A stretch of DNA of 63,760 nucleotides, filler included, from Reclinomonas americana ATCC 50394 (GCA_048213135.1; 6 parts of 3 records of this genome joined end to end with filler, not necessarily neighbours in it), one strand, 5' to 3'. Shown: positions 6,520 through 62,091, counted from the first letter of the whole stretch. Translations and numbers: made by a program. Notes: generated from the letters alone by a model not told the origin.

Positions 6520-25537
<19,018 letters not shown>

Positions 25538-25637
25538 NNNNNNNNNNNNNNNNNNNNNNNNNNNNNNNNNNNNNNNNNNNNTTAATTAATTAANNNNNNN
25601 NNNNNNNNNNNNNNNNNNNNNNNNNNNNNNNNNNNNN
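25538..25637. other. Artificial contig join (44N-TTAATTAATTAA-44N)
   Basis: Exactly 100 bp with a six-frame stop linker at 25582-25593; the identical construct occurs five times. Confidence 0.97.
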
Positions 25638-28600
25638 TATGCTGTCGTCGACCGATGTGAATACTGGTCAGGTGCTGTCGTACACTGTTGTGGGTGGTGC
25701 GGATCAAGCATCGTTCAACATCAGCGGCTCGAGCCTGCGTTCGAACGTCGCTGGCCTGACGGGCAACGCGCTGCAAGTGATTGTACAAGTCAGCGACGGT
25801 GCTGGTGGTGTGACAACTGCAACATTTGTCATCGACGAAGGTGTGTTTGTCTCTTAAGTCATCAATCGTTGTGTGGCTGACGTACTCACTACATCTACCC
25901 GCCAATCAGCCAATGTGGTGCCGTCAATTCCAACATTGTCATCCAGTGTGTATGCGCCACCGCTGGCGACCAACGGCGTCATTGGCACTCTTGCATCGTC
26001 CGACCCGAACACTGGCCAGACGTTGACATACTCGATTGTTGGTGGCACGCATCAGTCATCCTTCAACATCAGTGGAACGGATTTGCGCTCCAGTGTGGGT
26101 GGCCTGACGGGCAACAACCTCCAAGTGATTGTACAAGTAGACGATGGAGCAGGCGGCACCAACACAGCGACATTCCTCATCAACGAAGGTTGGACTGGCT
26201 CGCACTGCGCTCGTCCTTCTTGTTTCTCGTTAACCCATCGCTTTTGTTTTATTGTGCAGCCAATGTGAACCCGACTACGCCCACTCTGTCAAGCAGCACT
26301 TACATCCCACCACTCGCCACAAATGGCGTCATTGGCACTCTCGCCTCGACAGACGCCAACACGGGTCAGACGCTGACGTACACCATCACCGGCGGCACCA
26401 GCATGGGATCGTTCAACATCAGCGGCAGCAGCTTGCGGTCAAATGTTGCTGGTCTCACCGGCAACAGCCTGCAAGTAATTGTGCAAGTGAGCGATGGAGC
26501 AGGTGGCACCAACACGTCCACGTTCACCATCAGCGAAGGTCCGTGCGGTGGCTTGTTCTTTTGCTTCTTCCTTTTTTGCACTCGCTCAGTCGCACACTCT
26601 ATTATCTTCATTACAGCCAATGTTGTGCCGACGCCGCCGACTCTATCCACCTCGACGTACACTCCACCACTCGNNNNNNNNNNNNNNNNNNNNNNNNNNN
26701 NNNNNNNNNNNNNNNNNNNNNNNNNNNNNNNNNNNNNNNNNNNNNNNNNNNNNNNNNNNNNNNNNNNNNNNNNNNNNNNNNNNNNNNNNNNNNNNNNNNN
26801 NNNNNNNNNNNNNNNNNNNNNNNNNNNNNNNNNNNNNNNNNNNNNNNNNNNNNNNNNNNNNNNNNNNNNNNNNNNNNNNNNNNNNNNNNNNNNNNNNNNN
26901 NNNNNNNNNNNNNNNNNNNNNNNNNNNNNNNNNNNNNNNNNNNNNNNNNNNNNNNNNNNNNNNNNNNNNNNNNNNNNNNNNNNNNNNNNNNNNNNNNNNN
27001 NNNNNNNNNNNNNNNNNNNNNNNNNNNNNNNNNNNNNNNNNNNNNNNNNNNNNNNNNNNNNNNNNNNNNNNNNNNNNNNNNNNNNNNNNNNNNNNNNNNN
27101 NNNNNNNNNNNNNNNNNNNNNNGGTGGTACCAATCAGGCATCGTTCAACATCAGCGGCACCGACTTGCGATCCAATGTGGCTGGTCTGAGTGGCAACGGA
27201 CTGCAGGTGATTGTGCAAGTGAGCGATGGAGCTGGTGGTACCAACACATCCACGTTCACCATCAGCGAAGGTTTGTATCGCTCCTTATCTGTTAAAAGTC
27301 GCGTGGCTGACTTAGTGTCTGGGGTGCGCAGCCAATGTGCCTCCGTCTGCTCCGACGATTTCGTCGACTGCGTACAACCCACCGCTGGCCCTCAACGACG
27401 TTATCGGCGTCCTGTCCTCGACAGACCCAAACACTGGGCAGGTTTTGACGTTTAGCATTGTGGGTGGTGCGGATCAAGCCTCGTTTAACATCAGCGGGTC
27501 CAATCTTCGTTCCAATGTTGCCGGCCTCTCCGGCTCCAACTTGGTGGTCATTGTGCAAGTTAGTGACGGTGCTGGTGGCACAAACACCGCAACATTTACG
27601 ATCGGCAGCTGTTGCGTTGCATTCCACTCTCTCTTTGTATCTCCTGGTTGTTGCGCCTGCCTGACTTTGTTCCGTGAAACACAGCGAACTTACCGCCGTC
27701 GGTGCCCACGTTGTCGACTGTGCTTTACGTTCCTCCTCTGGCGCTCAACGGCGTCATTGGCGCGTTGTCGGCCACGGACCCAAACGTCGGTCAGACGCTG
27801 ACATTCAGCATTCTGGGAGGAGCCGACTCGGCGCTCTTCAACATCAGTGGCTCAGACTTGCGTTCCAATGTGGCTGGTCTCGTCGGCAACAATTTGGAGG
27901 TCATTGTCGAAGTCAGCGATGGATTCGGCGGACTGACAAATGCCAGATTCCTGATCAGCGAAGGTTGGTGGCACGCTGCCGCTCTCGTGTCTTGCTTGCA
28001 CAAGTCGTGCATGCTGTTGCTCATCCTTCTCCTGCACACAGTCAACGTGCCACCCACCGCACCTACCCTCTCGTCCTCGTCGTACATTCCCCCACTGGCC
28101 GCGAATGGAGTCATTGGCATCCTGTCATCCACCGACGTCAACAGCGGGCAGTCGTTGACATTCACGATCACTGGTGGTGCGCATCAGGCACTGTTCAACA
28201 TCAGTGGTTCCAGCCTCCGAAGCAGTGTTGCCGGACTCACCGGCAACAATCTGTCGGTGGAGGTCACTGTGTCGGATGGCGCCGGTGGCACCAACGTCAG
28301 CACATTCGTCGTTGGCGAAGGTCTGATGCACCTTGCTGTCTGACTGCACGTCCCATTTTTGTTTGCTGATTTGATTGTCTGTCGCGACCGCACAGCCAAC
28401 GTGAATCCCACTGCGCCGGTGCTGTCTGCGCTCTCTTTCACACCGCCGCTTCCGCTCAACGGCGTCATCGGCGCCCTGTCCTCCACAGACCCCAATACGG
28501 GTCAAGCGTTGACGTTCACCATTACCGGAGGCGTCAACGCAAGCTCGTTTGTCATTGTCGCCTCGGACCTGCGCTCCAATGTGGCGGGACTGAGTGGAAT

Positions 28601-31600
28601 CAATTTGCAAGTGGTGGTGACCGTCAGTGATGGTGCAGGTGGCACCTCCAGCAGCACATTTACCATTACTGAAGGTACGGTTTCGTGTTTCCAGAATGCA
28701 TTAACGCTGGTACTCATGAGGTGCTGCTGTACACAGTCAATGTGCCACCATCTGCTCCATCGCTGTCACCCTCGACGTACGCGCCGCCTCTGGCACTCAA
28801 CGGTGTCATTGGCACCCTCTCGTCGTCCGATCCGAATACGGGGCAGACGCTCTCGTATTCCATCACCGGCGGGAGCAATCAGGCATCGTTCAGCATCAGC
28901 GGCACAAGTCTGCTGTCGAATGTTGCCGGCTTGACAGGAAACAGTCTGCAGGTGACGGTGCAAGTCAGCGATGGCGCCGGAGGTATCAACAGTACGACGT
29001 TCTCGATCAGCGAGAGTTGCGTGATTGAAGTCTGTGGCAAGACGCGATGTCACTGTCGCTGAATGCTTGTCCATTAATTGCAGGCAATGTGCTCCCGAGT
29101 GCACCAACACTCTCGACCACTCTGTATGCGCCAACGCTGGCCTTGGGCGGCACAATCGGCACACTGGCCGCCACTGATGCGAATTCTGCGCAGACACTTG
29201 TTTACGCAGTCACCGGTGGCACACATCAGTCCGACTTTTACGTTGTTGGCAACAGCTTGCTCTCCAATGTCAATGGACTCAGCGGCAACGGTCTTCAAGT
29301 GGAGGTCACTGTGTCGGACGGCGCCGGTGGCTCGCGCTCATCTACATTCATCATCAACGAGAGTTGCGAGAACTGCATTCAGTGTTTCGTGGCTTGCAGG
29401 TTCTCATTTGTGCTTCTTTGTCCACAGGCAATGTGATACCGACTGCACCAGTGCTGTCCACCAGCACGTACGTTCCCCCGTTGGCCCTAGGAGCCGCCAT
29501 TGGCACAATCGCCGCCACCGATGTGAACACTGGGCAGACGCTGTCGTTCACCATCACCGGCGGTAGCGCGCAGGCCTCCTTCTCTCTGGTCGGCACCGAT
29601 CTTGTCTCTGCTGTCGCGGGCCTCACCGGCAGCGGCCTGCAAGTCACGGTCACTGTCTCCGACGGCGCAGGAGGCAGCAACTCGAGCACTTTCCTCATCA
29701 ACGAAGGTGATTCGCATTGCCATTGTGCGTATGATGTTTGCCATACTCACGTGAATCGCAGCCAATGTGTCTCCAACTGATCCCACCCTCTCGACCAACA
29801 CCTACATTNNNNNNNNNNNNNNNNNNNNNNNNNNNNNNNNNNNNNNNNNNNNTTAATTAATTAANNNNNNNNNNNNNNNNNNNNNNNNNNNNNNNNNNNN
29901 NNNNNNNNCCAATAGTTCCATGGAGAGCGAGAGGCGGCTGGTACACCAGGGTCGACAGCACCGGCGACGACGGCGACACATTGGCTGCGCACAGACGGCG
30001 TGAGTAACTCAAAAAAAAGACATGTTCTGCGAGTGTATGTGTGTGTGAATGCACACCTTCGTTAATGACAAATGAACTTGCGGCTGAGCCACCGGCGCCG
30101 TCGCTGACAGTCACTGTTACTTGCAGGCCGTTGCCAGTGAGACTGGCCACGTTGGCACGGAGACTGTTGCCGCTGATGTTGAACATGGACTGATTGGCGC
30201 CTCCAGTGACAGCGTACGTCAGCGTCTGACCCGTGTTCACGTCGCTTGACGAGAGCAGGCCAATGACACCGTTGAGTGCCAGCGGAGGNNNNNNNNNNNN
30301 NNNNNNNNNNNNNNNNNNNNNNNNNNNNNNNNNNNNNNNNNNNNNNNNNNNNNNNNNNNNNNNNNNNNNNNNNNNNNNNNNNNNNNNNNNNNNNNNNNNN
30401 NNNNNNNNNNNNNNNNNNNNNNNNNNNNNNNNNNNNNNNNNNNNNNNNNNNNNNNNNNNNNNNNNNNNNNNNNNNNNNNNNNNNNNNNNNNNNNNNNNNN
30501 NNNNNNNNNNNNNNNNNNNNNNNNNNNNNNNNNNNNNNNNNNNNNNNNNNNNNNNNNNNNNNNNNNNNNNNNNNNNNNNNNNNNNNNNNNNNNNNNNNNN
30601 NNNNNNNNNNNNNNNNNNNNNNNNNNNNNNNNNNNNNNNNNNNNNNNNNNNNNNNNNNNNNNNNNNNNNNNNNNNNNNNNNNNNNNNNNNNNNNNNNNNN
30701 NNNNNNNNNNNNNNNNNNNNNNNNNNNNNNNNNNNNNNNNNNNNNNNNNNNNNNNNNNNNNNNNNNNNNNNNNNNNNNNNNNNNNNNNNNNNNNNNNNNN
30801 NNNNNNNNNNNNNNNNNNNNNNNNNNNNNNNNNNNNNNNNNNNNNNNNNNNNNNNNNNNNNNNNNNNNNNNNNNNNNNNNNNNNNNNNNNNNNNNNNNNN
30901 NNNNNNNNNNNNNNNNNNNNNNNNNNNNNNNNNNNNNNNNNNNNNNNNNNNNNNNNNNNNNNNNNNNNNNNNNNNNNNNNNNNNNNNNNNNNNNNNNNNN
31001 NNNNNNNNNNNNNNNNNNNNNNNNNNNNNNNNNNNNNNNNNNNNNNNNNNNCACGCTGTCGGCGACCGACGTGAACACAGGCCAGACACTGTCGTTCTCC
31101 ATCACTGGCGGTGCCGATCAGGCGTCGTTTGAGATCAACGGAACCACTCTGCGCTCCAGTGTCGCGGGTCTGGTGGGCTCGAGTCTGCAAGTCGTCGTGA
31201 CGGTAAGCGACGGTGCCGGTGGATCGTCACAGGCCACATTCATTGTCACATCAAGTGCGTTGTCTTTCTCCATGGTTTGAGGTTTCTCTTTGCTGATTTC
31301 TCACACTCTGCAGTTGGCCCCGTGGACATGGCTCTATCCTCGACCACCTACACGCCACCGACCTCGACCGCGAATACGGTGGTTGGCACGCTCTCCACAA
31401 CCGACACATCTGCATCTTCACCCTACACCTACGCCGTGGTGGGCGGAACCGATGCTGCTGTGTTCTCGGTCATTGGGGATCAACTGGTAATTCGAGCTGC
31501 GGGACAGCGAGGTACCGGTCTGCAAGTGCAGGTGCTGTCAACCAATGCCAGTGGACAAACGCTGGCCAAGTTCTTTACTATCAACGACGGTGAGTGACGA

Positions 31601-34600
31601 TATTTGGTGTTTGCAGAGAGAGTCGCTGCTCACTCTCTCGGTCGCTTGCAGTGCCCGTGACCCCGACCGACGTACTTTTATCCTCGTCGGCCTACGCACC
31701 ACCCACACCCGCTGCCAATACGGTGGTGGGCACACTCACTGGAGTCGATGGCAATGCGAACGACGCACTGTCACTGTCGATCGTCGGTGGTGCGAATAGT
31801 GCTCTCTTCGACATTGTCGGCTCGCAGTTGGTACTCCGCAACGCAGGCCAGCAGGGCAACAATCTGCAAGTCACAGTCCGAGTCAGTGACCCGTCCGGCG
31901 CGCACTTTGACAAGACGTTTACCGTCAACGAAGGTGCGTGCATGTGCTTCTCTACCTTCTTGTGTCTGTGTCGCTCATCGAGTCTGTCGCTAGCCAATGT
32001 GCCTCCGTCAGCACTGGCACTCTCCACCACCACTTACTCGCCGGTACCCGCACCCGTTGGCACCATCGTTGCCACGCTCTCAACCACGTGCGTTTGCACT
32101 TACGATTGCTCCTGGTCCATCAGTGGTTCGTGAAATCCTCACTCTGCACGCCACCACAGAGACGCGAACTGCTGTCAGAGCATGACGTACTCGATTGTTG
32201 GTGGCGCTGCTGCGTCTCGATTCAGTATCTCCGGGAACCAACTGGTGGTCGACAGCAGTGGCGGTCCGCTCACCGGCAATAGCCTGAGCATTGTTGTGCG
32301 TGTCGATGACGGTGCAGGCGGNNNNNNNNNNNNNNNNNNNNNNNNNNNNNNNNNNNNNNNNNNNNNNNNNNNNNNNNNNNNNNNNNNNNNNNNNNNNNNN
32401 NNNNNNNNNNNNNNNNNNNNNNNNNNNNNNNNNNNNNNNNNNNNNNNNNNNNNNNNNNNNNNNNNNNNNNNNNNNNNNNNNNNNNNNNNNNNNNNNNNNN
32501 NNNNNNNNNNNNNNNNNNNNNNNNNNNNNNNNNNNNNNNNNNNNNNNNNNNNNNNNNNNNNNNNNNNNNNNNNNNNNNNNNNNNNNNNNNNNNNNNNNNN
32601 NNNNNNNNNNNNNNNNNNNNNNNNNNNNNNNNNNNNNNNNNNNNNNNNNNNNNNNNNNNNNNNNNNNNNNNNNNNNNNNNNNNNNNNNNNNNNNNNNNNN
32701 NNNNNNNNNNNNNNNNNNNNNNNNNNNNNNNNNNNNNNNNNNNNNNNNNNNNNNNNNNNNNNNNNNNNNNNNNNNNNNNNNNNNNNNNNNNNNNNNNNNN
32801 NNNNNNNNNNNNNNNNNNNNNNNNNNNNNNNNNNNNNNNNNNNNNNNNNNNNNNNNNNNNNNNNNNNNNNNNNNNNNNNNNNNNNNNNNNNNNNNNNNNN
32901 NNNNNNNNNNTGTTCGAGACCAGACATTTGTGCTGGACGAGGCCAATGTGGCACCGACGGCGGTGACCTTGTCGTCAATGACATACACACCGCCGTCACC
33001 GTTGGGCACGGTCGTTGGCACGCTGGCGGCTGTGGATGCCAATTGCTGTCAATCGTTCACCTATTCCATGTGCGTTCACCGTTGAGCTGGCGCGTCCTGC
33101 GATCTCGTTCTCACCCAAAGTCTTCTTTGTCAGTGTTGGTGGACCTGATGCCAGCAAGTTCTCCGTGTCGGGAGACCAGCTGGTGGTCGCAGCTGCCACT
33201 CTCAACACGTCGCCTCTCACTGTGATTGTGCACGCCGACGACGGCGCGGGCGGCTCTGTCGACCAGACACTGACCATCACTGAAGGTTGGTGTTGCCGGC
33301 GGTGGATCTGCACATCTGCTGCGCGTGTGGTTCACTTCTTGTTTCGCAGCTAATGTGCCGCCGAGTGATCTTCTGCTGTCACCATCCACGTACGTGCCGC
33401 CAGCCGCACAGGGATCAGTTATTGGCTCTCTGTTTGTGATCGACGCCAACTGTTGTCAGTCACACACGTATTCCATGTTGCGCAACGACCAGCGGTGTTT
33501 TTTTTTTGCTGCGTACCTTCTCGTGTGCCTGCCAGCTGATCCCCTCTATTATGCAGTGTTGGAGGCGCAAACCAGGGTCTGTTTGCGATCTCCGGCACCG
33601 ACTTGCTTGCCAATCTTCCCGGTGGCTTGTCGGGCACTGGATTGCTGGTCACCATTCGTGTCTCTGATGGATTCTCCTCGTTGGACCGCACATTTACTGT
33701 CAACGAAGGTGTGTGTGTGTGTTGCGGAAATGACCGACGAGCTCGTACACCGCAAAGTGTGCCTTACTGACTGATGGGTGACTTGTCGACTGCAGTCAAC
33801 GTGGCACCAAGCGACATTATTTTGTGGGGCACGACATACATTCCACCGACCTCGAGTGCGAATGTGGTGGTGGGCTTCTTCACCACGTTGGACATCAACA
33901 CGGGCGACACATTCACCTACAGTTGCGTGCATGGATTGCAATTGTGTGGGGGTTACCGCCTCTGATTGAGACTGACATGCTCGTGATCTTGTCAATGTCA
34001 ATGCAGCAATCTCTGGCGGCCCGCACTCGGCCATGTTCAACATCAATGGCACGCAACTACGACTGAGCGCCGCAAACTCTCGTGGCGATCCACTGCAGGT
34101 CGAAGTGCAGTCGACCGATGCGGCCGGTGCCTGGGTCCGCAAGCTGTTTACCATCACTGAAGGTCCCGCATCTCTGTCGACCGTGCATGTTGTATGTCAT
34201 CTCACTCGTCCGTACGCACAGTGAACGTGCCGCCATCGGCATTGGTGCTGAGCTCCAACACATATGTGCCGCCAACTCTCACCGCCGGAGTGGTGGTGGG
34301 CTCGCTCACTACCGTCGACGCCAACACGCTGGGCTCATACACGTACACGGTTATCGCCGGCTTCAACGAGTCGCTGTTTGTGCTCAGCGGATCCACGCTG
34401 TCGCTGGCACTGGCCGGACAGACTGGCAACAACCTGCGCATCCGCATCGAAGTATCCGATGGTCGTGGAGGGACTCTGCAGACAACATTTACGTGCGTGT
34501 GCTGTCGCGGAGATTGCTGGTTTTCATTTTGATTCCTGCATCTAACTTTTGTTTCTCAACGTGCGTCTCCGTCTCTCTCTCTCTCTCCACGTACAGCATC

Positions 34601-37600
34601 AACGAAGGTACCGTTAATTGCACGTGATTCTACGCGTCTACTGTCCACTGATTGTATTTGTTCTGCAGCCAACGTGCCACCAGCAAACCTGGCGCTGTCG
34701 ACAACGTTCTATGCTCCACGTAGTTTGCAGAATGCTTTGATTGGAGTGTTGTCGGCCACCGACGCTAACTGCTGTCAGAGTCTGTCGTACATTCTCATCG
34801 GCAACGACGACGACTCCAAATTCTACGTTGCGCTCTGTCTGTCATTCGCTGTGTTGGTGGCGCACGACTCTGATTGTGTGCTATGCGCAGATTGGTGGTG
34901 TTGCTGGTAACGAGCTGCATGTACAGACGCTGGTGCTGAGCGGCATGGTATGTATTCACGCGGCTGCAAGAGAGTGTGTGTCCCTTGCTCACGTGGATTG
35001 TTGCAGAACCTCATCATCACTGTTCGCGTGAGTGACGGCAACGGCGGCTCACAAGACACCACTTTCTTCCTCAACGAAGGTGCGATGTGCTGCTGCCCGC
35101 CATCCTTGCGCACCTGTTGCTCACGTTGTTGNNNNNNNNNNNNNNNNNNNNNNNNNNNNNNNNNNNNNNNNNNNNTTAATTAATTAANNNNNNNNNNNNN
35201 NNNNNNNNNNNNNNNNNNNNNNNNNNNNNNNGAACAGATGATGGCCGTGGTGGAACAGTGGATACGACGCTGTCTCTCGGTGATGGTGCGTGGCAGTTGA
35301 TCGTGTCCCTTGTACGGAGAGTGACGCGATACTGACACAGACAGAACCTTCGTTACCCGTTCGCAGCCAATGTTGCTCCTTCCGGCATCTCTCTCTCGTC
35401 GAACACATACACGCCGGCCACGTTGGCTGCGAACCAGCCAGTGGGTACCTTGAGCGCCACCGACCTCAATGCCTGGGACACGGCGACGTTCTCCATTGTT
35501 GGCGGTGCTAACCAGGCGCTGTTCACCATCATTGGAAATCAGCTGTGCTTGCGCAATGCTGGTCAGACGGGAACCAATCTGTCCGTGATTGTGCGAGCCA
35601 CCGACGCGGCCGGTGCCTCACTCGATGTGCCGTTCACTGTCAACGATGGTATGTCGATGATTGACTGGAATGTGACACAGCCTTGGGAGACTCACACTGC
35701 TCTCCCTCGCAGTACCGGTGGCACCCACGTCGGTGTCGCTCTCCTCCAGTACCTACGTGCCACCCACCGCCTCAGCCAATGGGGTGGTCGGCGTTTTGTC
35801 GACTTCTGACTCCAACGCGACCGATTCGTTCACTTACTCGGTTGTTGGCGGCGCCAATGCTGCCCTCTTTGATGTTGTCAATGGCAATCTGGTGTTTAAG
35901 AACGCCGGGCAACGCGGTGACGGACTGCAGGTGGTGGTACGATCGACAGACTCCACCGGCAACTTTGTGGATCAGCCATTTGTGTTGAATGAGGGTGAGT
36001 CATTCTCGTTTATGCGCTTCTTCGATCGTTTCCAGTGCTGACATGTCGTGATGGTTGATTCACGCAGCCAATGTGCCGCCTTCCAACCTCCTGCTGGACA
36101 GCACATCATATGTGCCACTGGATCCGACGCCGGGGCAAGTTGTTGGCATCCTTCAAGGCGTTGATGCGAACACCGCCTCAACATTCACATATTCGATTGT
36201 TGGCGGTGCCGATGCCAGTCTGTTCTACATCTCCGGCAACCAGCTGCGTCTTGTCAACACCAACCAGTCCGGCAACAACCTGCAGGTGCTGGTTCAAGTC
36301 AGCGACGGTCGCGGCGGCACCCTACAGCAATCCTTTTTGATCTCGGAGGAGAATGTCGTGCCCACCGACATCCATTTGAGTGGCACGACATATGTGCCTC
36401 CCACCAGCGGACCATTCACGGTGGTCGGCACGCTGACTACTGAGGACAGCAACGTCGGGCAGTCGCACACCTACACGCTGCAGCCGGTGGGCGACTTCGC
36501 GGTGTTCGACATTGCAACCGACGTGTTGCGCATTCGTGCCGCGGGTCAAGTGGGCCACTCGTTCAGCATTCAGATCCTGACTGACGACGGCGCTGGTGGC
36601 ACGTTCTTGAAGTTGTTTACCATCACCGACGGTGAGTAGTACGCTTCGGATGAGCATCTTAACTCCAAGTGTTCCAATTTACTCACTCACACGCTGTTTC
36701 TCCTGCAGTGAATGTCCCTCCGACGGACATTGGTCTGTCCCCTGCATCGTACCTGCCGCCGACATTGGCAGCCAATACGGTTGTGGGCTCTCTCACAGCC
36801 ACTGATGCCAATGGTTTTTAATTGCTTCTTTAGGTGCACACAATAGTTTCTATTGCTTATTGTTCATCTTTTCCGTCTCTCTTCTGTTGCAGTTGCCGAT
36901 GTGCACGCCTTTAGTATCGTCGGTGGCTCAAATGCAGCTGCATTCGACATTGTGAGTGGCAACCGTCTGGTGTTGCGCAACGTTGGTCAGCGAGGCACTC
37001 TCGCCGTGGCCGTTCGAGCCGCNNNNNNNNNNNNNNNNNNNNNNNNNNNNNNNNNNNNNNNNNNNNNNNNNNNNNNNNNNNNNNNNNNNNNNNNNNNNNN
37101 NNNNNNNNNNNNNNNNNNNNNNNNNNNNNNNNNNNNNNNNNNNNNNNNNNNNNNNNNNNNNNNNNTCCTCTGTCTGTTGGCAATGCGCACCTCCTTATTC
37201 TAAGTTTTTGTCTTTCCCTCACAGACCCGGTTTCACCGTCGGGTATCACCGTGTCGACGACGACGTATTCCGCACCCACGCCGTCTGCGAATACGCCGGT
37301 CGCCACGTTGACAGCCATTGACGGTAACATCAGCGACACGTTCACGTTCTCTATTGTGGGTGGCACTTCGGCCGCCTTGTTCAATGTGCAAGGGAACCAG
37401 TTAGTTCTCCGCTCTGCGGGTCAGACGGGCAATGGACTGCAGGTGGTTGTGCAGGTGAGATTGCAGGATTGTCGGTGTCCAAGTGCGCTGCCTTTGTGCT
37501 TGCTGACTGTTGTGTGCAGGTGACGGACAACACTGGCCGCAGCGCGGTGCAGACACTGACGTTCAACGAAGGTCGGTGGTCACCGCCTGCTGCTGTTTGT

Positions 37601-40600
37601 TGATGGTTGTTTCTCATCAAGCTCGCGCCATGGCCAGTCAATGTGCCACCGACGGCACTTGCACTCTCACCACAACTATACACGCCGCCTGGCGTGGTCG
37701 GTACAACTGTTGGCCAGCTGACCACCACCGACAGCAATACCGGAGAGACATTTACGTACTCGATTGTCGGCGGTGCCAATCAGCTGGCCTTCAGCATCAG
37801 CAACGATCGCCTGTTGGTGGCCGCCACGGGACTCTCCGGTAATGGCCTTTTGGTGCAAGTGCGTTCAACCGACTCGGGTGGCCTTTCCATCACGTCCACC
37901 TTCACAATCAACGAAGGTCTGTACCACCCAGCCTGTCTCCTGAATCGATGATTGGCACACTCACGCTTCCTCCTCCGCCAGCCAACGTGCCACCGACGTC
38001 CATCTCGCTCAGCAACAACACCTACACTCCACCGACCACCAGCGCCCTGCAGCCCATTGGCATTCTCAGTGCTGTGGATGTGAACACTGGCCAAACTGTG
38101 TCATTTACCGTGCGACCTGGCGGCTCTGGCGCCCTCTTCACCGTGCTGGCCACGATGCCGCCCCAGTTGGCCTTTGTGGCGGCTGGTCAGCGCGGCACTG
38201 CCTTGACTCTCACGGTAATTTGACGAAGAAGAGCCAGAGAATGTGGTTGCTGCATTGCGTCTTGGTGACTGGCATTTTTTGTGGCGTTGCACGCAGATTC
38301 GAGCGACGGACTCGGTTGGCGGCTTCTCCGACCGCAATTTTGTCATCAACGACTGTTGCGTCATTGCTCGCCAACAGTCGCCATCTTGCCTCCCACTCCC
38401 TCACTACAGCTATGTTTTGTGCAGTGCCCGTGCCACCCACCGCCATTGCGCTGTCTTCATTGACGTACACACCACCGACAGCCGTCGCCAACACTGTGGT
38501 CGGCGTCCTCAGCGCGGTCGACGACAACACGGCTGACACATTTACGTGGTCGATTGTGCCGGGTGGTCAGTCGAATCTCTTCGACGTGTCGCCGGCAGGT
38601 GCTCTCATGCTGCGAAACGCCGGCCAAGGTGGCAATGGATTGCAGGTCACAGTGAAGGTTGGTGGACTTGTCGCTGTAGTGCAGGAGATTGGTGTTTCCT
38701 TGCTGACTGTCAAATTGCAGGTGACCGACAGCGCCGGCAACACGCTGACTCGCACATTTACTATCAGCGAAGGTTTGACCTCATCTGCTTGCTTGATGTG
38801 CGACGCGCGATGATGTGCTAATTTGTATTCGTGTCGGCAGCCAATGTGCCACCGCAATCCACCACGTTGACGCCCAACACGTTTGTTCCTCCGACACTGA
38901 CGGTGAATACAGTGGTGGGCACGTTATCGACCGTGGACGCCAATTGCTGTCAGTCGTGGACGTACACGATTCAGCCGGGCTTGCAAGGCGCTGTGTTCAA
39001 CAGTTTCGTACGCGAGTTTGTTTGTTTCCCAATCTCTGCGCAGTAACACTCACCCATGTGGCCTTGTGTCGCAGTCTTCGGCAATCAGCTCCGCATCTCG
39101 TCAGCTGGTGTTAAAGGCTACGGTATGCAGCTGGTGGTGCGCACCACTGACAGCGCTGGTGGCATTCTGGACTCAACGCTGACGGTTACCGAACGTGCGT
39201 CGCTCGATCATGACGTGCGTGTCGTGTTGGTGTGGCAACAACTCACATCGTGTATATTCTATTCTCCATAGAAAATGTGCCACCCACCATTCTCTCTCTG
39301 TCGTCCTCCATGTACACGCCGGCTACTGTGACGACGAACACCGTCATCGGTACACTCTCTGTGTTTGATGCCAACTCTTCGCCTCCGGAGGCGCACGTGT
39401 TTTCCATTGTGGGCGGATCGTCTTCAACGCTGTTCAACGTTCTCGGTGCCAATCTGGTGCTGGTGAACGCCGGCCAGGTTGGCACCAACTTGCATGTCAT
39501 TGTGGTGCGTTGGTTGCTTTTGAAGGGCATTATGTGGTCGTGCATGATGGCAATGGACTGACTGCATGGAAACAGCGCGTCACGGATACACTCGGTCCAG
39601 CATCACTTGACAAGGAGTTTGTCGTCACTGATGGTGCGTAGCGCGGTCTTCAACCTCTGTTACATCTCCTTTATTCCTCACCGCGTCATCACTAGTCCCG
39701 GTGCCGCCACGGGCCATTCTGATGTCGTCGTACTCCTACACACCTGCGTCTACCACTCCCAACACACCCGTCGGCAATCTCACGGTGCTTGACGACAACG
39801 TGACCGATATTGCGACGTTCTCGCTGGTCGGTGGCGCCGATATGAATCTCTTCGCAATCGTCGGTTCCACGTTGGTAGTGCGCAACGCTGGTCAGGTGGG
39901 AAACAACTTGAGCGTGATTGTTCGCGCCACCGACAGCGCCGGCCTGTTCCGAGACGAAGTTTTCACCATCAGCGAAAGTTGCGTCTTTTCGTTTGTTCTT
40001 GCTTTGCAATCTTGTTGCTCTCCCCTCTCTCTCGTCACCTCCACCCCTTCCTATTCTCTCTGATTCCTTGATGACTCTGACTCTCTGTCCTTATTTTTCG
40101 TCTTCCCTTACGCCCAATGCGTGCAGGTAACTCGCCTCCCACAAATATTGGACTCAGCAAGCAGTATTATGTGGCGCCTACCTTGACCAACAATTTCGTG
40201 CTCGGTACACTCTCAGCAGTCGATGCCAACTCGCAAGATTCTTTCGTGTACTCCATCGTGCCTGGCCAGGGCGATGCACTGTTCAACATCAACAACGCGG
40301 CCGTGCCAGCTGAGCTACGCATCACGGCAGCAGGACAGACAGCCTCCAATCTTGTGGTTACCATTCGGGTCACCGACAGTGGTGGCGCCACGTTCCAGAA
40401 GTCGTTTGTGATTGCCGCCAGTTTCGTTCTCATTCTCTTCTTCTCGTGCGAGTCGCGTATGCTGGCAGCGTTACCGACTGCCTTTGATTGCCTGCCACCT
40501 CCTCGCAGTCGCTGCCACTGGGTTCTTACCAGCCACGGCGGCCACTGACACATTGTCGAGTGGCTTCACTGTTGTCGGCACAAACCTGGCAAGCACTCAG

Positions 40601-43600
40601 TTCTTCCAGCTGCAGTCTGCCAGCACGGCTCCCTGCAATGGCTCCGGCATTCCGCTCACCTCGACCACCGTGGTCTCGCAGGCAGCATCATTGCCGCTGG
40701 GTGTCACTCCAGGTCCCATTCCGACCGGCAGCTGTTTCGTGCACCTTCTACCGAGTGCGGTGTAGCGTGCGTGTGTGTCTCACATCGAGTGCAGACATCG
40801 TGTGCTTCTCGGTGGACGGCATCTCGCCGTACGTGCAAGTGGGCACGACCAGCTTGTCAATCGGTGAGTAGCATGTAAGGCTTGCGTTATTCTTTGCAGT
40901 CCATTTACCCAAATCGTCGCCCTCGCGCATAGTGCGTGTTGTCACCTTGAGTCCTGGTGTCGCGGTTGCCGACGGATCAGCGAAGCGCATCACCGTTCAA
41001 GGCAATGGCTTGAACAAGGCACGTGATGTGTTCAGGTTGGTGCTGCGGTCGACGACTTGTGCCAGTGGTGCTGCTGTCGGCGCAATCACTGGTGAGGAAG
41101 TGACCACATTTTGTACGTTTTCTACTGATGCGTTTCTCATTCGCGCTGTGCAGTGGATCCTGTTGGACCAACCGACACGTCCCTTGAGTTGCTGGTCACG
41201 GTGCCTGTGCCAGCCGACCTGGTGAACGGCACATTCCTGCGCATGTGTATCCAGGTCAATGTCGGCACGCCATTTGTTGAGTTCACGCCAGTGGCGAGCA
41301 ACGGCGATGTCACCGCAGGTACGACAACAAGTCGATCCCCTCCCGAGCGTGTTTGCGTGCTGAAATTACTTACGATCATTCTCGCAGTGGTGATCTCGTC
41401 GATTGTCCCCAATGTTCTGTCCATCGGCACATCGCCACTCTCTGTGCAGCTGGTTGGCGCACACCTCGATGCCGCCGATCAGTACGTGGTGGCTCTTCCG
41501 TCGACTACGTGCACCGTGCCTGCTGGTAGCAGTCCGGCTGGCGCAATCACTACCACGGTTGTCACTGCGCCACCCTCCTCAGCCACGCTCACGCTGGCAC
41601 TCCCGCTGACGGCTGGGTTGTATAAGTTGCGTTGGAGGGGAGGTGTACAAGGACAGGTCAATGTGCATAGTCCACTCATGCACTGTCATGTTGCGCGCAG
41701 GGTGTGCGTTAAACCGGGTGGAAGTGCCAGTGCGCAGTTTGGCGATGCTGCACCCGACCAGCAGCTGATCCTCGGTCTGCATTGTTGACATGTCATGCCG
41801 CCTTTTCCTTTATTTATTGTATTGACTGATTTTCCCGCCGACTTTTCCTTTTCTCAGTGTCGACGGGTGCCGTATCGCCGACACTGATGATTACTGACAG
41901 CCTGGCAAAGACACTTGTCGTCCCGGGTCTGTTCCTGAACGCCTCGCGCGATACGTTTGCCTTAGTGGCAGCCGATGCGTCATGCTCGAGCGCAGCGACG
42001 GCCTCTTATGGCTTTGTCACGGTTGACACTGCAGCCAGCTCGTCTACGCAAGTCGTACTGCGGGTGGCCGTTTCCTCGTCGGTGACTCAGTCGATCGGCG
42101 CGCCATCAAGCATGCAGGTTGAGATGCGCACGGTCCTTCCTTCTGCAGTGACGCCGTCAGCGACCGCGCCATCTGCGTTGCAACTGTGTATACGCAACTC
42201 TGCTGCCGCGGACCCTTCGTTTGCGTGGACACCAGTCGGCGCGGCTGCTGGTGCAGGACTGAATGTCATTGCTTTGGGTATGTCACGTATTTGTCTCGTA
42301 CGTCGAAGGCTGGTCCATGTCATGATGTCTGACTATTGCACTGTTCGCAGCTCGGCCGACGGCGCTGACTCCCGTGGCGATTCCTCGCCTGCTAACCGTT
42401 CCTGCCACGTTCTCGCTCTCGTCCGTCAGCGTCACCATCAGTGGCATCAACTTGACGGTGGGTACGGATGTGGCGGTGGTTCCGTGGAACGTGGACTGCA
42501 GTCCGGCTGCCCCGCTGGTACCATCCATGCTCAACGCCGTGGCCACAACACTGGATGCCAGCGGTGTGCCCTCGACATTGGTGGTGACAGTCACGATTCC
42601 CGTAACTGCCACAGCGCAGTCGTACCACGTATGTATGCGACCGGCCAGCGCCGATCCCGCAGTGCAGTGGGGCGCAGTGGCGGACAACACTGCGTTGCAG
42701 CTTGGTGAGACGTTTCATGCGGTAGTTGAGTGATGCGGAGTGTCGCGAACTCACCACTGCTTCGGCTCACAGTGTCGGTGGATGACTTGGCATCGCACCG
42801 CGTCATCCGAGACAGCACGTCGTACACACTGACTGTCATTGGTGTCAACTTGAATGCCGACCGAGAGCGCTTCCAAATCGTGGCCGCCACCGACTCGTGT
42901 GTTGCTGGTGTGGCAGTAGGCACTGTTGGTGTGCCCAGTGGGGGTGCCAGTCGACTGCTGGTTGCGTTCTTCGTGGATTGAAATTCGATGTTGCACGTTT
43001 TGATTCACCTCGCATTTCGCAGGTGCCGTACACCCTCGGCAGCGCGCCTGCATCGGTAGCCCGTCGGCTGCAGCTGTGTGTGCGGCACGCGTCGACGTGG
43101 TATCCGTTCTCCACGATCAGCGGCAACCTGCTGTTCATGTCTACCATTCAGCTGCAGATGCTTGGCACAACGCGTCTGGCCTCGTCGGCAATGCCAGGTT
43201 CCTCACTTCTGTAGATTGACTTTTATGGCGATGTCGCACTCAACATGTGTGCTTTCATCAATACAGTGGCATACTACGGTCAAGAACCGCTCTCGCTGGT
43301 GTGGTCATGCGAGAATCCGACTGTGGCCACGGCCAATGTCGACCTGCTGTTCCAGCAGCGACCTTCTTCCAATAGCACGAGCACTACGGTGGCTGTCAGT
43401 GTGCACAGTGCCACCGTTTGTGACGGCACGTTTGGTAATGGCGTGGGGTGGAACGTCCCGTCATCACCGCCTGCCGGTCTTGTATCCACGGCCATTATTC
43501 CGTCGCTTGCGGCCTCCGAGACGGTGGAGTTTACCATCGTGCTCGACGATGGTGTTCTTGGTACCTTCTCGGTGGTGCTTGTCGGTACGGCAAGAAATCG

Positions 43601-45333
43601 AGCGTGTGCTTTTCTTGAAGAGCATTAGGCTGACTTGATCGGTGTGTATGTGCCTCACAGAACGCGCCATTACCGTGGTGGAACCGATCCCGCACCTGGT
43701 GCTCACTCGCCTCGATGTGTACCATCCGGTGTGGTTGTGCAATTGGCCTGAGGTCACCACGGTCAATCTGCGACTTGTGCGCGTTGGTGGCGCCTTCCAT
43801 CAGTTCACTGTGGCTGGTCAGTAGGTGTTGTTCGTTTGCTTCCGGAAGCGTTGTTTATGTTGGCTCATCATACCCGGCGCAGATAATGTCCTGTCTGTTT
43901 GCGACGGAGCATTCCGCAACGTTCTGTCAAGCAATTTCACAGTCTCCGTCGACGCCGTGTCTGGTCAAGACACGTATGCTCTGATCGTGGACGACGCGCC
44001 GAGTAAGCGAGTGACAGGCTGGGCCGTTTATGGAGTGGCAGGTGTGCAATGGTGCCTCCACCTCATCTGCACCGTTCTTCACTCTGACTTTTGCGTTTGC
44101 GCGCGTAGCTCCCCTCATTGCGGTGACGACGCCAGTGGAGGGAACAATCCTCTCCACCAACTCGACAGTGCCTGTCACATTTACGTGTAACCGTGCGGCG
44201 ATGCGCGTCGGCACTGTGATTCTGCTTGGTGCGTCCCACCAGTAGCGATTGTCGTTGGAAGTCGCGCGCATGTGCTCACTTGCATGACTGCCAATGCAGA
44301 ACAACAATATGCGGTCGATACATTCGGCACGATCTTCGATCCGACTGATCGTGTATTGCCGGTTGCCGGAGGCAGTCGCAGTCTGAACTTGGCGGATCCG
44401 CGCATTCTCCTTCGCTTCGAAGTTCCCGCCCGCTGCGGTGCCGGTGAAACGGTCAATGTGCTCAACTGGATTCCAGATTCGACGACGTACGTCGTTGGAG
44501 TGATCAACTCACGCGTGTGCTATCGTGGGCTCACTTGTGTTATGGTGCGCAGCAACTCAACTTCGGGATCCGCTGCCACGGCTTCTTCCAGTTCGCTCTC
44601 ACGCTCCGAAACCGACGTCGTCACTCCACCACCGACAGGGTGGGATGGTCCGCGTTTGTTGCGCGCGTGGGTGCTCGATGTGGCCAACACACAAGCGCCG
44701 CTTGTCGGTGGCAGTGGCCGCTTCCGCTTGGTGCGCACGGTGATGACCAGCAACGGCGTGCAGGTCGGCGTCGGTGCCGACGCGGACGTACAAATCACTG
44801 CCGACGGACAGGTGGTTGTCTCTCCGGCGACGACACCTGCTTCTGGCAGCAGTGACAGTGGAGGAGGAGATGTATCGGGCGGCGGCGGAGCAGCCATGTG
44901 TGGTAGCTTGCGCTGCTGGCTGTGGGCCGTGATTGCCGCGTCGGCGGTGCTTCTAATTGGTCTCCACGTCATTTGGTTTGTTTGTTGCTGGCGCCAGCGC
45001 CGCCATGCCGACGAGAAGGAGCTGCAGGCCCAATGTGCGTTGGTCTTGTGTTTTTTACCGCTTCTCTTTCGCGTGGTATAAGTTGACATGACCTTCGCTA
45101 CAGTGGTTGCTTACCATGATAATGCTGTGGACACTGACGACGACGACAATTGCCGCGCCGATGTGGACGACTTGGATGATGGGAAAACAATGGCCTGGGT
45201 GGATGCGAGGCGCCGTAATCCACCGAGAGTGATGGATGGTGTGTTTTGTGTGTTTGTGTGTGTGTGTANNNNNNNNNNNNNNNNNNNNTTGCTTGATATC
45301 TGTGGGTATCGGTGTCACGGATCAGCGACGCCG

Positions 45334-45408
<75 letters not shown>

Positions 45409-55731: not shown

Positions 55732-58700
55732 GCCACCGCCAACCTCCCAACCTTCGACATCTCCGAGGTCGCCAACCACCTCCTGCAAGCCGTCAGTTTT
55801 GAGGTTATCTTTCCTTCCATCCACTCTCCTTTCCTATTCTTTCTCCTCAACATCCAACAGACCATCAGCTCACGTCCCGGCAAGCATCTCGATGCCGAAT
55901 TCACTCGTCTGCACGAGTGGATCCGGGAAACGTACCCGCTGGTGCACCGGCATTTGCGTCGGGAGTTTGTCAACGGTTTCAATGTGGTGTACGAGTGGAA
56001 GAGCACCTGTTGCGTCACTCCCACATCTGCAAGTAAGTAGCGTGCCCCGACAACCGACTGGCATTGTCACAGCGCCGCACAAGCCGGTCCTCTTCGCCGC
56101 CCACCTCGATGTGGTGCCGGTGGCCGAGGAGACGCGCAACGCCTGGACGATGAATCCGTTTGGCGAGCTGACCCACGAGTTTGTGTACGGGCGAGGTACG
56201 TGGAGGGAGTGCGCGATACTCTCCACACCCAGTGTTCTCCTTTACTTTCGGCAATCTTTCCTCGTTCCTCAACTCGCAGGGTGCTCTCTGTTATTTCCAC
56301 AGTGTTCTTTGCATTTGTAGTCTTCTTCTTCTGTTGAGTGATATCTTTGTGCAGAGAACCCGTCAGCTCTTGCCTCTCTCGAATCTGTGCTCCTCCTCCT
56401 CACTCGCAGGGTGCTCTGTGCTATGTCCTCAGTGTTCTTCGCACTTGCAGTCTTTTTCTGTCGAGGGATATCTTCTTCAGAGAGCCCGTCTCTCTCGACG
56501 ATGCGCTCCTCTATCCTCAACTCTCTGTCATTTCCACAGTGTTGTTTGCGCTTGATGTCTTCTTCCATCATGCGATAATCTTTCTGCAGAGAACCCGTCA
56601 GCTCTTGTCTCTCTCAAATCTGCGCTCCTCTTTCCTCAACTTGCAGGCTGCTCTCTGTTATTTCCACAGTGTTCTTTGCACTTGTAGTCCAAGTGATATC
56701 TTTCTTCGGAGAACCCTTCTCTCTCTACGCTGTGCTCCCCTATCCTCAACTCGCACGGTGCTCTCTATTATTCCATATTGTTCTTTGTACTTGTAGTCTT
56801 CTTCCATCATGTGACATCTGCAGAGAACCCGTCAGCTCTTGTCTGTCTCAAGTCTGCGCTCCTCTATTCTGGTATTCCACAGCACTCGTGTTCTTCGCAC
56901 TTGACGTCTTTTTCTGTCAAGTTGTATCTTTCTTCAGAGACCCCGCCTCTCAACGCTGCGCTCCGCTATCCTCAACTCGCATGGTGCTCTCTGTTGTTCC
57001 GCAGCACTCACGTTCTTTGCACTTGGTCTTTTTTCTGTCAAGTAATATTTTCATGTTGAGTACCCCTTCAGCTCTTGTCTCTCTCGAATCTGCGCTCCTC
57101 TATCCTGGATCGTCATTTCCACACTGTTCTTTGCACTTGACGATTTCGTCTGTCAAGTGATATTTCCTTCTGCGAACCCGTCTCTCTCACAAGCAAGTCC
57201 CACAGATGCAATGTGTGTGTATCTTACTGCAGTCCTTCCCATAGCCATGTTTGTGATCCACCGTCTGTCTCTCTCCACTCTGTTCACGCAATGCGTGTGC
57301 GCTCGTCGCCCTTCGACAACCAAGTCATCTCTCCTTTCCCTCCACCATCGCCCTCACGTTCTCTAATCCCGTTCCTTTCCCCCTCCAGGATCGTTCGACG
57401 ACAAAGGCTCCGCCATCGCCCTCCTGGAGGCCGTGGAGCACCTGCTGGCAGCCGGTGTGCAGCCTGCTCGCACCGTGTATCTCGCCTTTGGCGCGGATGA
57501 GGAGATTGGCGGTGCGCTGTTTTTGCCAGCAGCTCTTGCTGTGTGTGTGTTGACCCCCCTCCTGAAATGCGGTGTTTGTGGGGCAGGTCGTGACGGAGCG
57601 GCGCATATCAGCGAGCTGTTCTACAAGCGCGGGATTGAGTTTGAGGTGCGGCGCTGCTTTTGAGGATTTGTGTTTATTGCTGTGTCGATTGTTGTATCTG
57701 TGAGCGAGTATCCATGTGTGAGTTTGAAAAAAGAGAAAAGAGCAGGCGTGCGAGAATCTGTATGCATTTGAAGTGAGAGCAAACAGAGATTGTTGTGTCC
57801 ATGCCGTGTGTGTCATAATGCTGTGTGCTTTCTGTGATGGTATATGTGTGTGGAATGAGAGCGAAAGAGTGATTGTTGTGCTCATCGGTAGTTGTTTACA
57901 ATTGACTTGCTGGTGTGTGTATTTTTTGTAATGTGAGGAAAGAGAAGTTGTTGCCTGCCTTGGAATATGAATGTGTGTGTGTCAGTGCGTTGATATATGT
58001 GTGAGTTTGAGTACGTATCTCTTTTTGATTGTTATGCTCATGCCTTGCATCAGCGCGTACAAAGGTATTGCGCCGTGACAGATGTCCTTCCCTAATCATC
58101 CTGCACAGATGGTGCTCGACGAGGGCGGTCAGTTCTCTCCCGACATGATCGACGGCATTTCTGAACATCCGCCTGCCTTTATTGGTTTGGTCCTCTCCCC
58201 CCTTCTCCTCCCCGTTCAGCCACACAAAGCCGACGCGACGTGTTATTGTTGCAGCGATGACGGAAAAGGGCGTCGTCACACTCGAAATCACCGTGTACGG
58301 CGTCGGTGGCCATGCCGCTTCTCCGCCGCCGCGCAGCGCTCTCGGCAAGGTTCTCCGTCTGTCTCCCACTCGCTGTGTCTTTATATCTCTCACTCATCGC
58401 TCGCAGCTGGGTCGAGTCATGCATCTCATCGAGACGACCTCGATGCCGCTGGTGATGACGCCGCAGTTGCAGCACATGTTGGAGAATTTGGTGCGTCGTT
58501 GGTGGCACTGTACTCGGTGCTTGCACGTTGAATTTGACTCGGTCATGCCGCGCAGTTCCCGCACCTCTCGCTGGTGGAGCAAGTCGCTCTCTCCAACATG
58601 TGGCTGTCGGAGCCACTTCTCATGCGCCATCTGTACAAAAAGTAAGCATCGAGTGAGTTCTCTCCATCATTGCCACCGCTGACACTCTTTTTTACCACTC

Positions 58701-60097
58701 CTCGCAGCCCGCGCATCCGCCCTCTCCTCCGCTCGTCGTGTGTGCCGACAATGGTCAGCGGCGGCGTCGCTTTCAATGTGGTGCCGACGCAGGGCAAAGT
58801 TGCATTCATGCGATTTCACTCGCCTCTCCGCCGAGTCATGGGCTGACCGAGCTTTGCAGATCCTCGTGAATTGCCGTATGCTGCCCGGTCAGACCATGGA
58901 GGACGTGCAGGAGTGGGTTACCACGCTGCTGCGAAAGAACGATCTGAGCAGCGTGCAAGTACAGCCGGCCCCGGGTTGTTGCGTCCCCCTTTCTCTGGAT
59001 GCAGCCGTTTTTCTGCTATCTCACTGGTGATAACAGCTTTCAAGTGCAACCCGACACGCCCGTCGCCGAGCGATTCACCAGTCTTCCGCTATTTCAGCTC
59101 CCTGATCAACACGTTCCGCCCGAATACGTCGGTACGTGCCCCGCATTATGGAGAGGAGGGAGGGAGCATGCGTGCTGACAGCAGAACAATGCACAGGTGG
59201 TGCCGCACTTTGCTTTCGGTCTGACGGACGCGCGATACTATGTCAAGACATCGCAGCATGTGTATCGCTTTACGTTGCGTGGCGGGAGTGAGAAGACTGC
59301 AACTGGTGCTCCATTTCTGTGGCACACTATTCGAGAAATTCGTTGCTGTCGTGCTTGTTTCTTCTCTCATGTTGAGTGTGCTCCTCATGGTGATGCTCTT
59401 TGGTTACCATTGCAGATTTCCTCTTGCTCTCATCTGTGATAATTCTCTCGCTTGTTTCGTCGCGCATGTTTGAGTTGGCTCAAGTGTTGTGTTGCTCTAT
59501 TTGTACGCCATTGCCGGTTCCCTGCCGGTTCCCTACCTCCGTCGTCTGCGGTTGTTCTCTCACTTGTTTCTTCTACCACGTTGAGGTTACTCACTGTTGT
59601 GATGCTCCTTTGCACGCCGATGCTCATTTTTCTTTCCGTCATCTGCTGGTTGTTGTTCATTCCCTCTTGCTTCCAACTCTCTCGCAATCGTGTCACTGCC
59701 ATGAGGGTGCTTCTCTTTTGCATGTCAATTGTTAATGCTCGTGTTCTGATTGTGAAAGTGTTGTTGCGCGTTGTTTCTTCTTTTCCCCGTCTCTCTCACT
59801 CTCCCTGACCCGCAGTCCGGCTCTCACGCCACTGGAGGAGCAAGCTCGCATGCATGGGTGCGTTGTGCGCGCGATGAGCTTGCCAACACTTCGCGTTCGA
59901 CATTAATGAGTGTTTTTGTGCAGCATTGACGAGCGACTGAGCTTCTATAACCTCGGCGAAATGGTTCGCTTCTACATGCTGGCGTTCACGTCGCTCGATC
60001 GCATGCCCGTCAGGTAACCACAAGTGCTCCGTGCTAAACATCTTGCTCGCTGCTGACCTACGCTGATGCACGCAGTACCGACTCGTTGGAGAGGTAG
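55732..60097 (+). CDS. M20A metallo-carboxypeptidase/amidohydrolase (PM20D1/yeast CPS1-like)
   Basis: Exons give PVLFAAHLDVVP, VYGRGSFDDKG, LAFGADEEIGG, MVLDEGG, TEKG, GGHAASPP, FNVVP, NCRMLPGQ, TDARYY and RMHGIDERL, covering the metal ligands. The first exon is probably at 54203 (or 53896). The stop is at 60097 with a final intron, or 60017 without it. Confidence 0.92.
56230..57190. repeat. Intronic degenerate minisatellite (~100-125 bp unit) in M20 gene
   Basis: Recurrent tcctcaactcgca.ggtgctctctgtt..ttccacagtgttctttgcacttg...cagagaacccgtc blocks, about 8 copies, between the VYGR and GSFDDK exons. Confidence 0.85.
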
Positions 60098-61991: not shown

Positions 61992-62091
61992 NNNNNNNNN
62001 NNNNNNNNNNNNNNNNNNNNNNNNNNNNNNNNNNNTTAATTAATTAANNNNNNNNNNNNNNNNNNNNNNNNNNNNNNNNNNNNNNNNNNNN
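61992..62091. other. Artificial contig join
   Basis: Same linker at 62036-62047. Confidence 0.97.

Follow-up and report, generated by a model that had tools for sequence, protein, structure and literature searches.

A 5' splice-site class GTT(G/T)CG(T), displaced by one base from GTGCGT, in a 63.8-kb window of Reclinomonas americana

The 63.8 kb of DNA analysed here (63,760 nucleotides from Reclinomonas americana ATCC 50394, GCA_048213135.1; hereafter the window) are eukaryotic, intron-rich and poorly assembled, and contain, next to 5' splice sites (donors) of the form GTGCGT, an off-register class of donors that reads GTT(G/T)CG(T). The presence of this class is confirmed within the window at the level of sequence, and the altered U1/U6 recognition or variant snRNA proposed behind it is a prediction. 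We judge the chances to be about even that its members are genuine U2-type GT-AG donors that form a discrete second class, in which the core of the local donor would be read with a displacement of one base. All donor results are based on the window sequence together with protein homology.

Frequency and anatomy of the displaced donors

The donor set comprises 49 loci, 40 from a large cadherin-like repeat gene, seven from an M20 peptidase gene and two from an RNase II gene, and no donor motif was used in choosing them. GTTGCG is the commonest hexamer of this set (9 of 49), followed by GTGCGT (7) and GTGAGT (3), and GTTTCG occurs once. Independent columns predict 0.44 occurrences of GTTGCG, and nine is reached by this or any other tetramer in 0 of 100,000 column shuffles. 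A first-pass annotation of the window had named, as an outcome that would undo the class, a frequency of GTTNCG no higher than a position-independent matrix predicts; 10 such donors are seen against 1.54 expected, a number reached in 0 of 200,000 shuffles. On the coding strand of 27231-40200 there are 907 GT dinucleotides and 12 GTTGCG hexamers, eight of which coincide with the 32 curated donors of this region and two more of which lie inside introns.

All 10 class donors carry T at +3 and G at +6, and 7 of 10 carry T at +7, whereas among the other 39 donors G is found at +5 in 33 and T at +6 in 24. The tetramer GCGT is the most frequent in both registers, occupying +4 to +7 in 6 of 10 class donors and +3 to +6 in 7 of the 39 others. 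The annotation's description of the class as the local core with one extra T, which moves the conserved G from +5 to +6, is borne out by these counts; likewise, the features that define a shifted (+1) register, U at +3 and conserved intron positions that sit exactly one base further on than in the local consensus, are both found.

The exon side of the junction is distinctive as well. The base preceding the class donors is A in five cases, T in four and C in one, and is never G (0 of 10), as compared with G before 32 of the 39 others (Fisher 2.4e-6). The 17 donors that follow a base other than G are confined to five hexamers (nine GTTGCG, five GTGCGT, and one each of GTTTCG, GTAAGC and GTTGCA), and 25 different hexamers are found among the 32 donors preceded by G. 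Both the avoidance of a preceding G and the tolerance of weak donors after G had been proposed from the first reading and hold here; among the 17 plus-strand positions that it listed, G precedes only the one at 42961. A negative association between a preceding G and the strength of the intron side, as expected from a scheme with two classes of donor, is therefore present in the window.

The 10 class introns are all of the GT..AG type, and their removal restores the continuity of the repeat profile or of the M20 profile. Intron interiors behave as non-coding sequence, being 8.4% diverged between two copies of the repeat gene versus 1.0-2.4% at codon positions 1 and 2. U12-type introns have a donor consensus of the RTATCCTT kind, which none of the 10 class donors resembles. 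Beyond the donor, the class introns share no sequence, which implies that function, rather than recent copying, maintains the motif. Local alignment of the 12 introns then counted in the class gives a mean of 8.8 over 66 pairs, in agreement with the mean of 7.7 among other introns, and the top scores stem from CT-rich low-complexity runs. Similarity along the introns, which would mark an introner-like repeated intron family, is not found among them.

Assignment of donors and the two copies of the repeat gene

The genes that host the donors, and the second copy of the repeat gene, are as follows.

25639-48875 (+), large cadherin-like repeat gene, recognised by repeat-profile matches and cadherin-domain relatives; hosts most of the donors studied
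13519-25154 (-), second, inverted gene copy, with copies of class donors at 25154, 23749, 23402, 20741, 20298, 19393, 15133, 14485 and 13519
55858-59978 (+), M20 peptidase gene, an independent source of donors; 11 exon pieces placed by a profile from 60 relatives, and seven donors fixed
48979-51472 (-), RNase II (RNB) gene, cut by a scaffold linker; profile from 30 relatives, two donors

The repeat gene consists of cadherin-like repeats of ~91 residues, roughly one per exon, separated by phase-1 introns 55-90 nt long. Dozens of repeats are matched by a profile made from seven of them, on the plus strand from 25639 to ~40400 and on the minus strand from 25428 down to 13084. The nearest relatives of the repeats are cadherin-domain proteins with 36-37% identity, of which the named ones are bacterial. 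By blastn, 7235-25536 (-) is an inverted copy of 27231-46511 (+) with 92.6-95.9% identity, the inverted arms measuring ~19 kb around a centre of 1.7 kb. The arms probably extend to 6528-7103 (-) and 48195-48875 (+), and the repeat gene probably continues into a protein-kinase exon at ~48200-48500, where a weak kinase match is found; the same weak match is seen at the outer ends of both arms. The two copies may represent either two haplotypes that were folded together by the assembler or a true inverted duplication. In either case, the donors of the two copies are not independent, and each locus is counted once.

Divergence between the copies amounts to 2.4, 1.0 and 7.4% at the first, second and third codon positions (22, 9 and 68 of 915 each; 32 curated introns), counted only in exons with a single open frame, and to 8.4% in intron interiors (100 of 1190). 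Insertions and deletions number 21 in 2309 intron bases and 0 in 4920 exon bases. The donor GT is conserved in 32 of 32 pairs and the class hexamer in 9 of 9. The comparison of these two diverged copies validates the exon/intron partition as modelled.

Donors were located without recourse to a donor motif. A dynamic-programming gene model, based on codon usage and later also on an acceptor matrix, allowed any GT as a donor and picked GTTGCG or GTTTCG at 10 introns of the plus copy. This model was trained on the repeats and is valid there only, the exons of the M20 and RNB genes scoring near or below zero; the other genes were therefore handled with profiles built from relatives. For the repeats, all in-frame GT/GC..AG pairs at each junction were scored by comparing the spliced peptide with the repeat profile and with a junction-centred profile from 15 unambiguous junctions after G, and exon chains were assessed where a junction contains two introns. 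Profile scoring selects the class site at seven junctions with margins of 4.6-8.9 bits, and makes the same choice in the second copy. Model and profile disagree at six junctions of the plus copy (28675, 32088, 33070, 33477, 33709 and 34163). At 33477, for example, the model took 33432 instead, which would remove 15 residues from the repeat.

The class donors, together with related sites, are listed below.

27611-27684 (+), intron, GTTGCG after T, at a repeat boundary; highest-scoring of 8 candidates, ahead by 4.6 bits of the GC donor lying 3 nt downstream; copy at 25154
29016-29083 (+), intron, GTTGCG after A, at a repeat boundary; ahead by 4.9 bits; hexamer identical in the allele at 23749
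29363-29427 (+), intron, GTTGCG after A, at a repeat boundary; ahead by 5.0 bits; second-copy allele at 23402
33477-33556 (+), intron, GTTGCG after T, inside a repeat (profile columns 41/42); margin 7.3 bits
33922-34006 (+), intron, GTTGCG after A, inside a repeat; ahead by 5.7 bits; second-copy allele at 20298
34827-34890 (+), intron, GTTGCG after C, phase 0, upstream of a 57-nt exon; unbroken 1-91 alignment with 79.5 bits versus 78.2 for the GC donor; allele at 19393
38355-38424 (+), intron, GTTGCG after T, at a repeat boundary; unbroken 1-91 alignment with the usual linker in the chain test; allele at 15133
39003-39074 (+), intron, GTTTCG after A, inside a repeat; margin 8.9 bits; identical allele at 14485
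39978-40126 (+), intron, GTTGCG after A, at a repeat boundary; ahead by 4.9 bits; second-copy allele at 13519
56009-56072 (+), intron, GTTGCG after T, in the M20 (PM20D1-like) gene, between profile columns 106 and 111
40421-40508 and 40734-40794 (+), two introns with GTTTCG, not fixed by homology; found by the donor-blind gene model independently in both copies
41626, 42961, 46086, 48293 and 59274 (+), motif present and compatible with a donor role; rivals or no homology
31255, 32088, 33070, 34493 and 39195 (+), canonical GTGCGT donors after a base other than G; from profile scoring and copy alignment
3695, 3039, 1958 and 1782 (-), candidate GTTGCG sites near an SH2-domain gene, from motif occurrence

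The first-pass annotation had listed 17 plus-strand sites as donors whose frame is fixed by homology. The motif is present at all 17 positions; the donor role is fixed by homology at 10 and supported by the gene model in both copies at two more (40421 and 40734), and at the remaining five it is ambiguous. The annotation had further placed four such donors in a minus-strand SH2 gene, which are probably the four candidates listed here, although these fall outside its range of 27611-59280. A search of that range found no SH2 domain, the SH2 being situated at ~2.8 kb. An SH2 exon at ~2751-2828 (-), within 2673-2879, matches the first 27 SH2 columns with 29 bits; its own donor follows G and reads GTGTGT, after which come ~800 bases of low-complexity repeat. 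No homology was found for the open reading frame downstream of this exon.

Two candidates were removed from the class. GTCGCG at 34504, called in single-intron scoring as a donor with an inserted C, was rejected, as both copies have GTGCGT 11 nt upstream and a conserved 11-nt exon. This exon, 34597-34607 (+), encodes the conserved usual end of the repeat, is flanked by the GTGCGT donor at 34493 and by a weak donor after AAG at 34608, and is identical in the two copies, whereas the flanking introns differ; its counterpart lies near 19620 (-). GTCCCG at 34163, caught by a loose pattern, was dropped because it is preceded by AAG. A further donor, at 58799 (+) in the M20 gene, follows A and reads GTTGCA, and is thus class-like with A at +6; it is counted outside the class.

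The acceptors of both copies are unusually sharp, approximating YGCAG (among 109 model introns, 77% have C at -3 and 61% have G at -4), and CTGAC- or CTCAC-like motifs are found 20-30 nt upstream of the acceptor in many introns. Between a linker and an N run, 29909-30288 carries a cadherin-like repeat on the minus strand, inverted with respect to its flanks.

Register of the core and competing explanations

We suggest that donors in this window may be defined in two ways. After an exon ending in (A)AG, nearly every intron start that has G at +5 would suffice; where the exon does not end in G, the intron would have to carry the strong core GCGT, either directly after GT (GTGCGT) or one base later behind an obligatory T (GTTGCGT). 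In the latter case the RNA that reads the core, U1 first and then U6, would pair one base out of register, and the upstream GU would remain the cut site despite the shifted pairing. We predict that what reads the core departs from textbook U1, because the 5' end of the latter cannot pair with GCGT. That the extra position is T in 10 of 10 cases speaks for a U that is paired or slipped, and against a free bulge, and a register displaced by one base appears, on the pairing models, to be the most economical reading. More tentatively, and with doubts outweighing confidence, we propose that a GCGU core is routinely read at two distances from the cleavage site, off-register reading accounting for ~1 intron in 5, with an altered U1 5' end or another early reader.

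The differences between the gene copies offer a hint in the same direction. Class-like donors differ at +4/+5, where GTTTCG at 40734 corresponds to GTTGCG at 12767 and GTTTCG at 40421 to GTTTTG at 13079, and canonical donors differ at +3/+4, with GTGAGT in place of GTGCGT (35995 versus 17479) and GTGCGT in place of GTACGT (39195 versus 14297). The positions of these four differences fit a displacement by one base, which is only suggestive.

Several observations weigh against the displaced reading. When each site from -3 to +9 is folded against the textbook 11-nt U1 5' end, the class donors pair with a mean energy of -0.75 kcal/mol (n = 10), which is weaker than GTGCGT donors (-3.26, n = 7), other donors (-6.47, n = 32) and even the 869 non-donor GU sites of the same gene (-2.27); at the median, 74% of these non-donor sites pair at least as well as the class site. 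No stable pairing of the class with textbook U1 is obtained in the canonical, shifted or bulged register, and a bulge +2/+3 structure was never returned for the 10 sites. The shifted or bulged U1 pairing put forward in the first-pass annotation accordingly fails for the textbook sequence and would need a divergent partner; under these models, a U1-like appearance is confined to the exon-anchored donors. If positions 5 and 6 of U1 are hypothetically set to G and C, every one of the 10 class sites is paired, exclusively in the pure +1 register and with a mean of -6.64 kcal/mol, and GTGCGT donors pair very well, at -10.99. It is only with this hypothetical U1 that shifted pairing is more stable than canonical pairing, and its discrimination is modest, as a median of 25% of decoys are at least as stable.

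The distribution of the sites adds to these difficulties. A single repetitive gene accounts for 40 of the 49 donors, among them 9 of the 10 in the class, and five class introns are located at homologous repeat boundaries; the description of a major class holds insofar as 10 of 49 donors is a large share of the window, and rests on one window and largely on this one gene. Moreover, exon-side bases are confounded by the coding constraints of the repeats. At 56009 the GT donor leaves three linking residues and the GC donor at 56012 the expected four, such that spacing does not settle GT versus GC. The five listed sites in other contexts remain ambiguous: in-frame rival donors are present at 41617 for 41626, at 42973 for 42961, and at 48296 and 48299 for 48293; 59274 scores 24.8 bits versus 26.4 for a rival donor; and 46086 has no homology around it.

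The class could instead have a reader of its own, such as a variant U1 snRNA or an early-spliceosome protein, for which GUUGCG would be a motif in its own right without any shift of register, its likeness to GUGCGU plus a U being partly coincidental. Variant U1 snRNAs are known in animals, and a dedicated reader would be in keeping with textbook U1 pairing with the class in no register and with an invariant T at +3, as for a fixed motif. We nevertheless regard this as rather unlikely: canonical GTGCGT donors share both the GCGT core and the avoidance of a preceding G, for which one reader with two spacings is simpler, and the copy differences sit where a one-base displacement predicts.

Equally unlikely, in our estimate, is a local or family peculiarity, in which the donors would be real but over-represented by descent from a few ancestral repeat-boundary introns and would make up a few percent or less genome-wide. 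The concentration in one gene and at a homologous boundary described above is what such descent would produce, as is the ambiguous or merely candidate status of the sites in other genes. Four class introns, however, lie at non-homologous positions inside repeats (33477, 33922, 34827 and 39003), the absence of shared sequence beyond the donor implies that the motif is kept by selection, and GTTGCG is also present in the M20, kinase and SH2 regions, at what could plausibly be ends of exons.

It is highly improbable that the introns are of the GC-AG type and start 3 nt downstream (GTT/GCG), with exons one codon longer. An in-frame GC does exist at every GTTGCG site, and at 56009 the spacing of the M20 profile is better by one residue; at the six GTTGCG repeat junctions, by contrast, the GC donor is always the runner-up and is 4.6-7.3 bits worse, because it would extend the linker between repeats, which is otherwise always one residue long. 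It is also 1.3 bits worse at 34827, and at 38355 it ties in score but makes the linker one residue longer. In addition, a GC donor is inapplicable to GTTTCG or GTTTTG members, and the GCG that would follow an exon T is unlike the canonical donors here. Finally, an artefact of decaying pseudogene copies or mis-set exon boundaries, with no role in splicing, is barely credible: the fragmentary assembly contains linkers and an inverted duplicate, and the donor-blind model mis-set six donors of the plus copy relative to the profile and 34504 was at first wrongly called, yet exons are under purifying selection, all 21 insertions and deletions are intronic, open frames are restored across dozens of repeats and the donor hexamer is kept in 9 of 9 copy pairs.

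Returning to the displaced register, 5' splice sites that pair with U1 in a shifted (+1) register were reportedly described in mammals by Roca and Krainer in 2009. Shifted and one-base-bulge registers are established in human cells according to the accessible part of one study (PMC4856993), where the bulge +2/+3 register accounts for 68 predicted and, after curation, 54 of 201,541 human 5' splice sites (~0.03%), and all curated non-canonical registers together for 2.1%. As far as that text goes, the mammalian shifted (+1) sites resemble those described here in that GU is still cut, U is found at +3 and the downstream positions are displaced by one base, which amounts to the consensus with an extra U; they are rare in human cells, as compared with 10 of 49 checked donors here (PMC4856993). 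Their core is AAGU rather than GCGU, and textbook U1 is not predicted to pair with GCGU in that register. The human bulge +2/+3 sites, as presented in the same accessible part, likewise have one surplus U beside the GU, after which canonical pairing resumes, and their share of ~0.03% contrasts with ~20% of the checked donors here (PMC4856993). For GUU sites, the bulge and shift descriptions differ only in the U1 base that faces +1.

A GTGCGT(G) donor consensus is documented, in the available portions of two papers, for the Mamiellophyceae green algae Ostreococcus and Micromonas (PMC2483917, PMC3879977). Shared with the window are the strong GTGCGT core, CTGAC-like branch motifs and short introns; within those portions the algae have a single consensus, and no one-base-displaced companion is described (PMC2483917, PMC3879977). 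The genes of the window, with SH2, a kinase exon and cadherin-like repeats, suggest that it does not derive from a green alga. Two main groups of 5' splice site, AG//GU and //GURAG, are likewise distinguished in the accessible text of three further papers (PMC9803359, PMC11732430, PMC11842720). In line with this scheme, exon-anchored and intron-anchored donors compensate for one another in the window, G preceding 32 of 39 non-class and 0 of 10 class donors; here, however, the intron-anchored class splits into two spacings of one core, which the three papers, as far as their text was accessible, do not describe. No report of an abundant one-base-displaced donor class in any organism was found in the literature searched, which lacks most subscription journals, nor any earlier description of GTTGCG as a splice motif, supplementary files excluded.

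In humans, the known sites with non-canonical U1 registers number between a few dozen and a few thousand and were proven singly. If the displaced donor were indeed the commonest hexamer of a genome, this would provide a natural system with many such donors, which could show how the cut site is set when the recognition helix is out of register, how the hand-over from U1 to U6 tolerates an offset and whether evolution can alter the near-invariant 5' end of U1. Gene finders with a single donor matrix would then misplace ~1/5 of exon ends; the ease with which exon ends are mis-set is illustrated by the errors of the donor-blind model and by the simple in-frame rivals. Were the pattern genome-wide, it would constitute an unusually common off-register splice signal.

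Assembly of the window and other features

The window contains 27 N runs. Pairing of N runs around a six-frame stop linker is seen five times, from which it follows that unrelated scaffolds were joined end to end, and scaffold order and orientation across the five linkers are arbitrary.

25538-25637, 29809-29908, 35132-35231, 48878-48977 and 61992-62091, scaffold linkers of 100 bases each, made of 44 N, a 12-base six-frame stop and 44 N

No Rfam family at gathering thresholds, and hence no snRNA gene by that search, and no tRNA by ARAGORN was found in the window. Neither a cadherin-like repeat nor an RNB exon has a self-match in the protein collection searched, and a metagenome scan with one repeat gave only four distant relatives with 41-44% identity and one 17-residue match at 88%.

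The M20 gene contains one intron of 1193 nt (56196-57388 (+)), others of ~460-600 nt and the rest of 60-80 nt. The two donors of the RNase II gene read GTTTGT and GTGAGC and both follow G. A C-terminal methyltransferase domain of the WBS/Bud23 type is encoded at 906-1538 (+) (51.5 bits). The region from 48 to 56 kb displays strong GC and AT skew. Within it, GTTGCG occurs on the minus strand at 53894 and 54201, 307 bases apart in near-identical 24-base contexts, which suggests a tandem repeat rather than donors.

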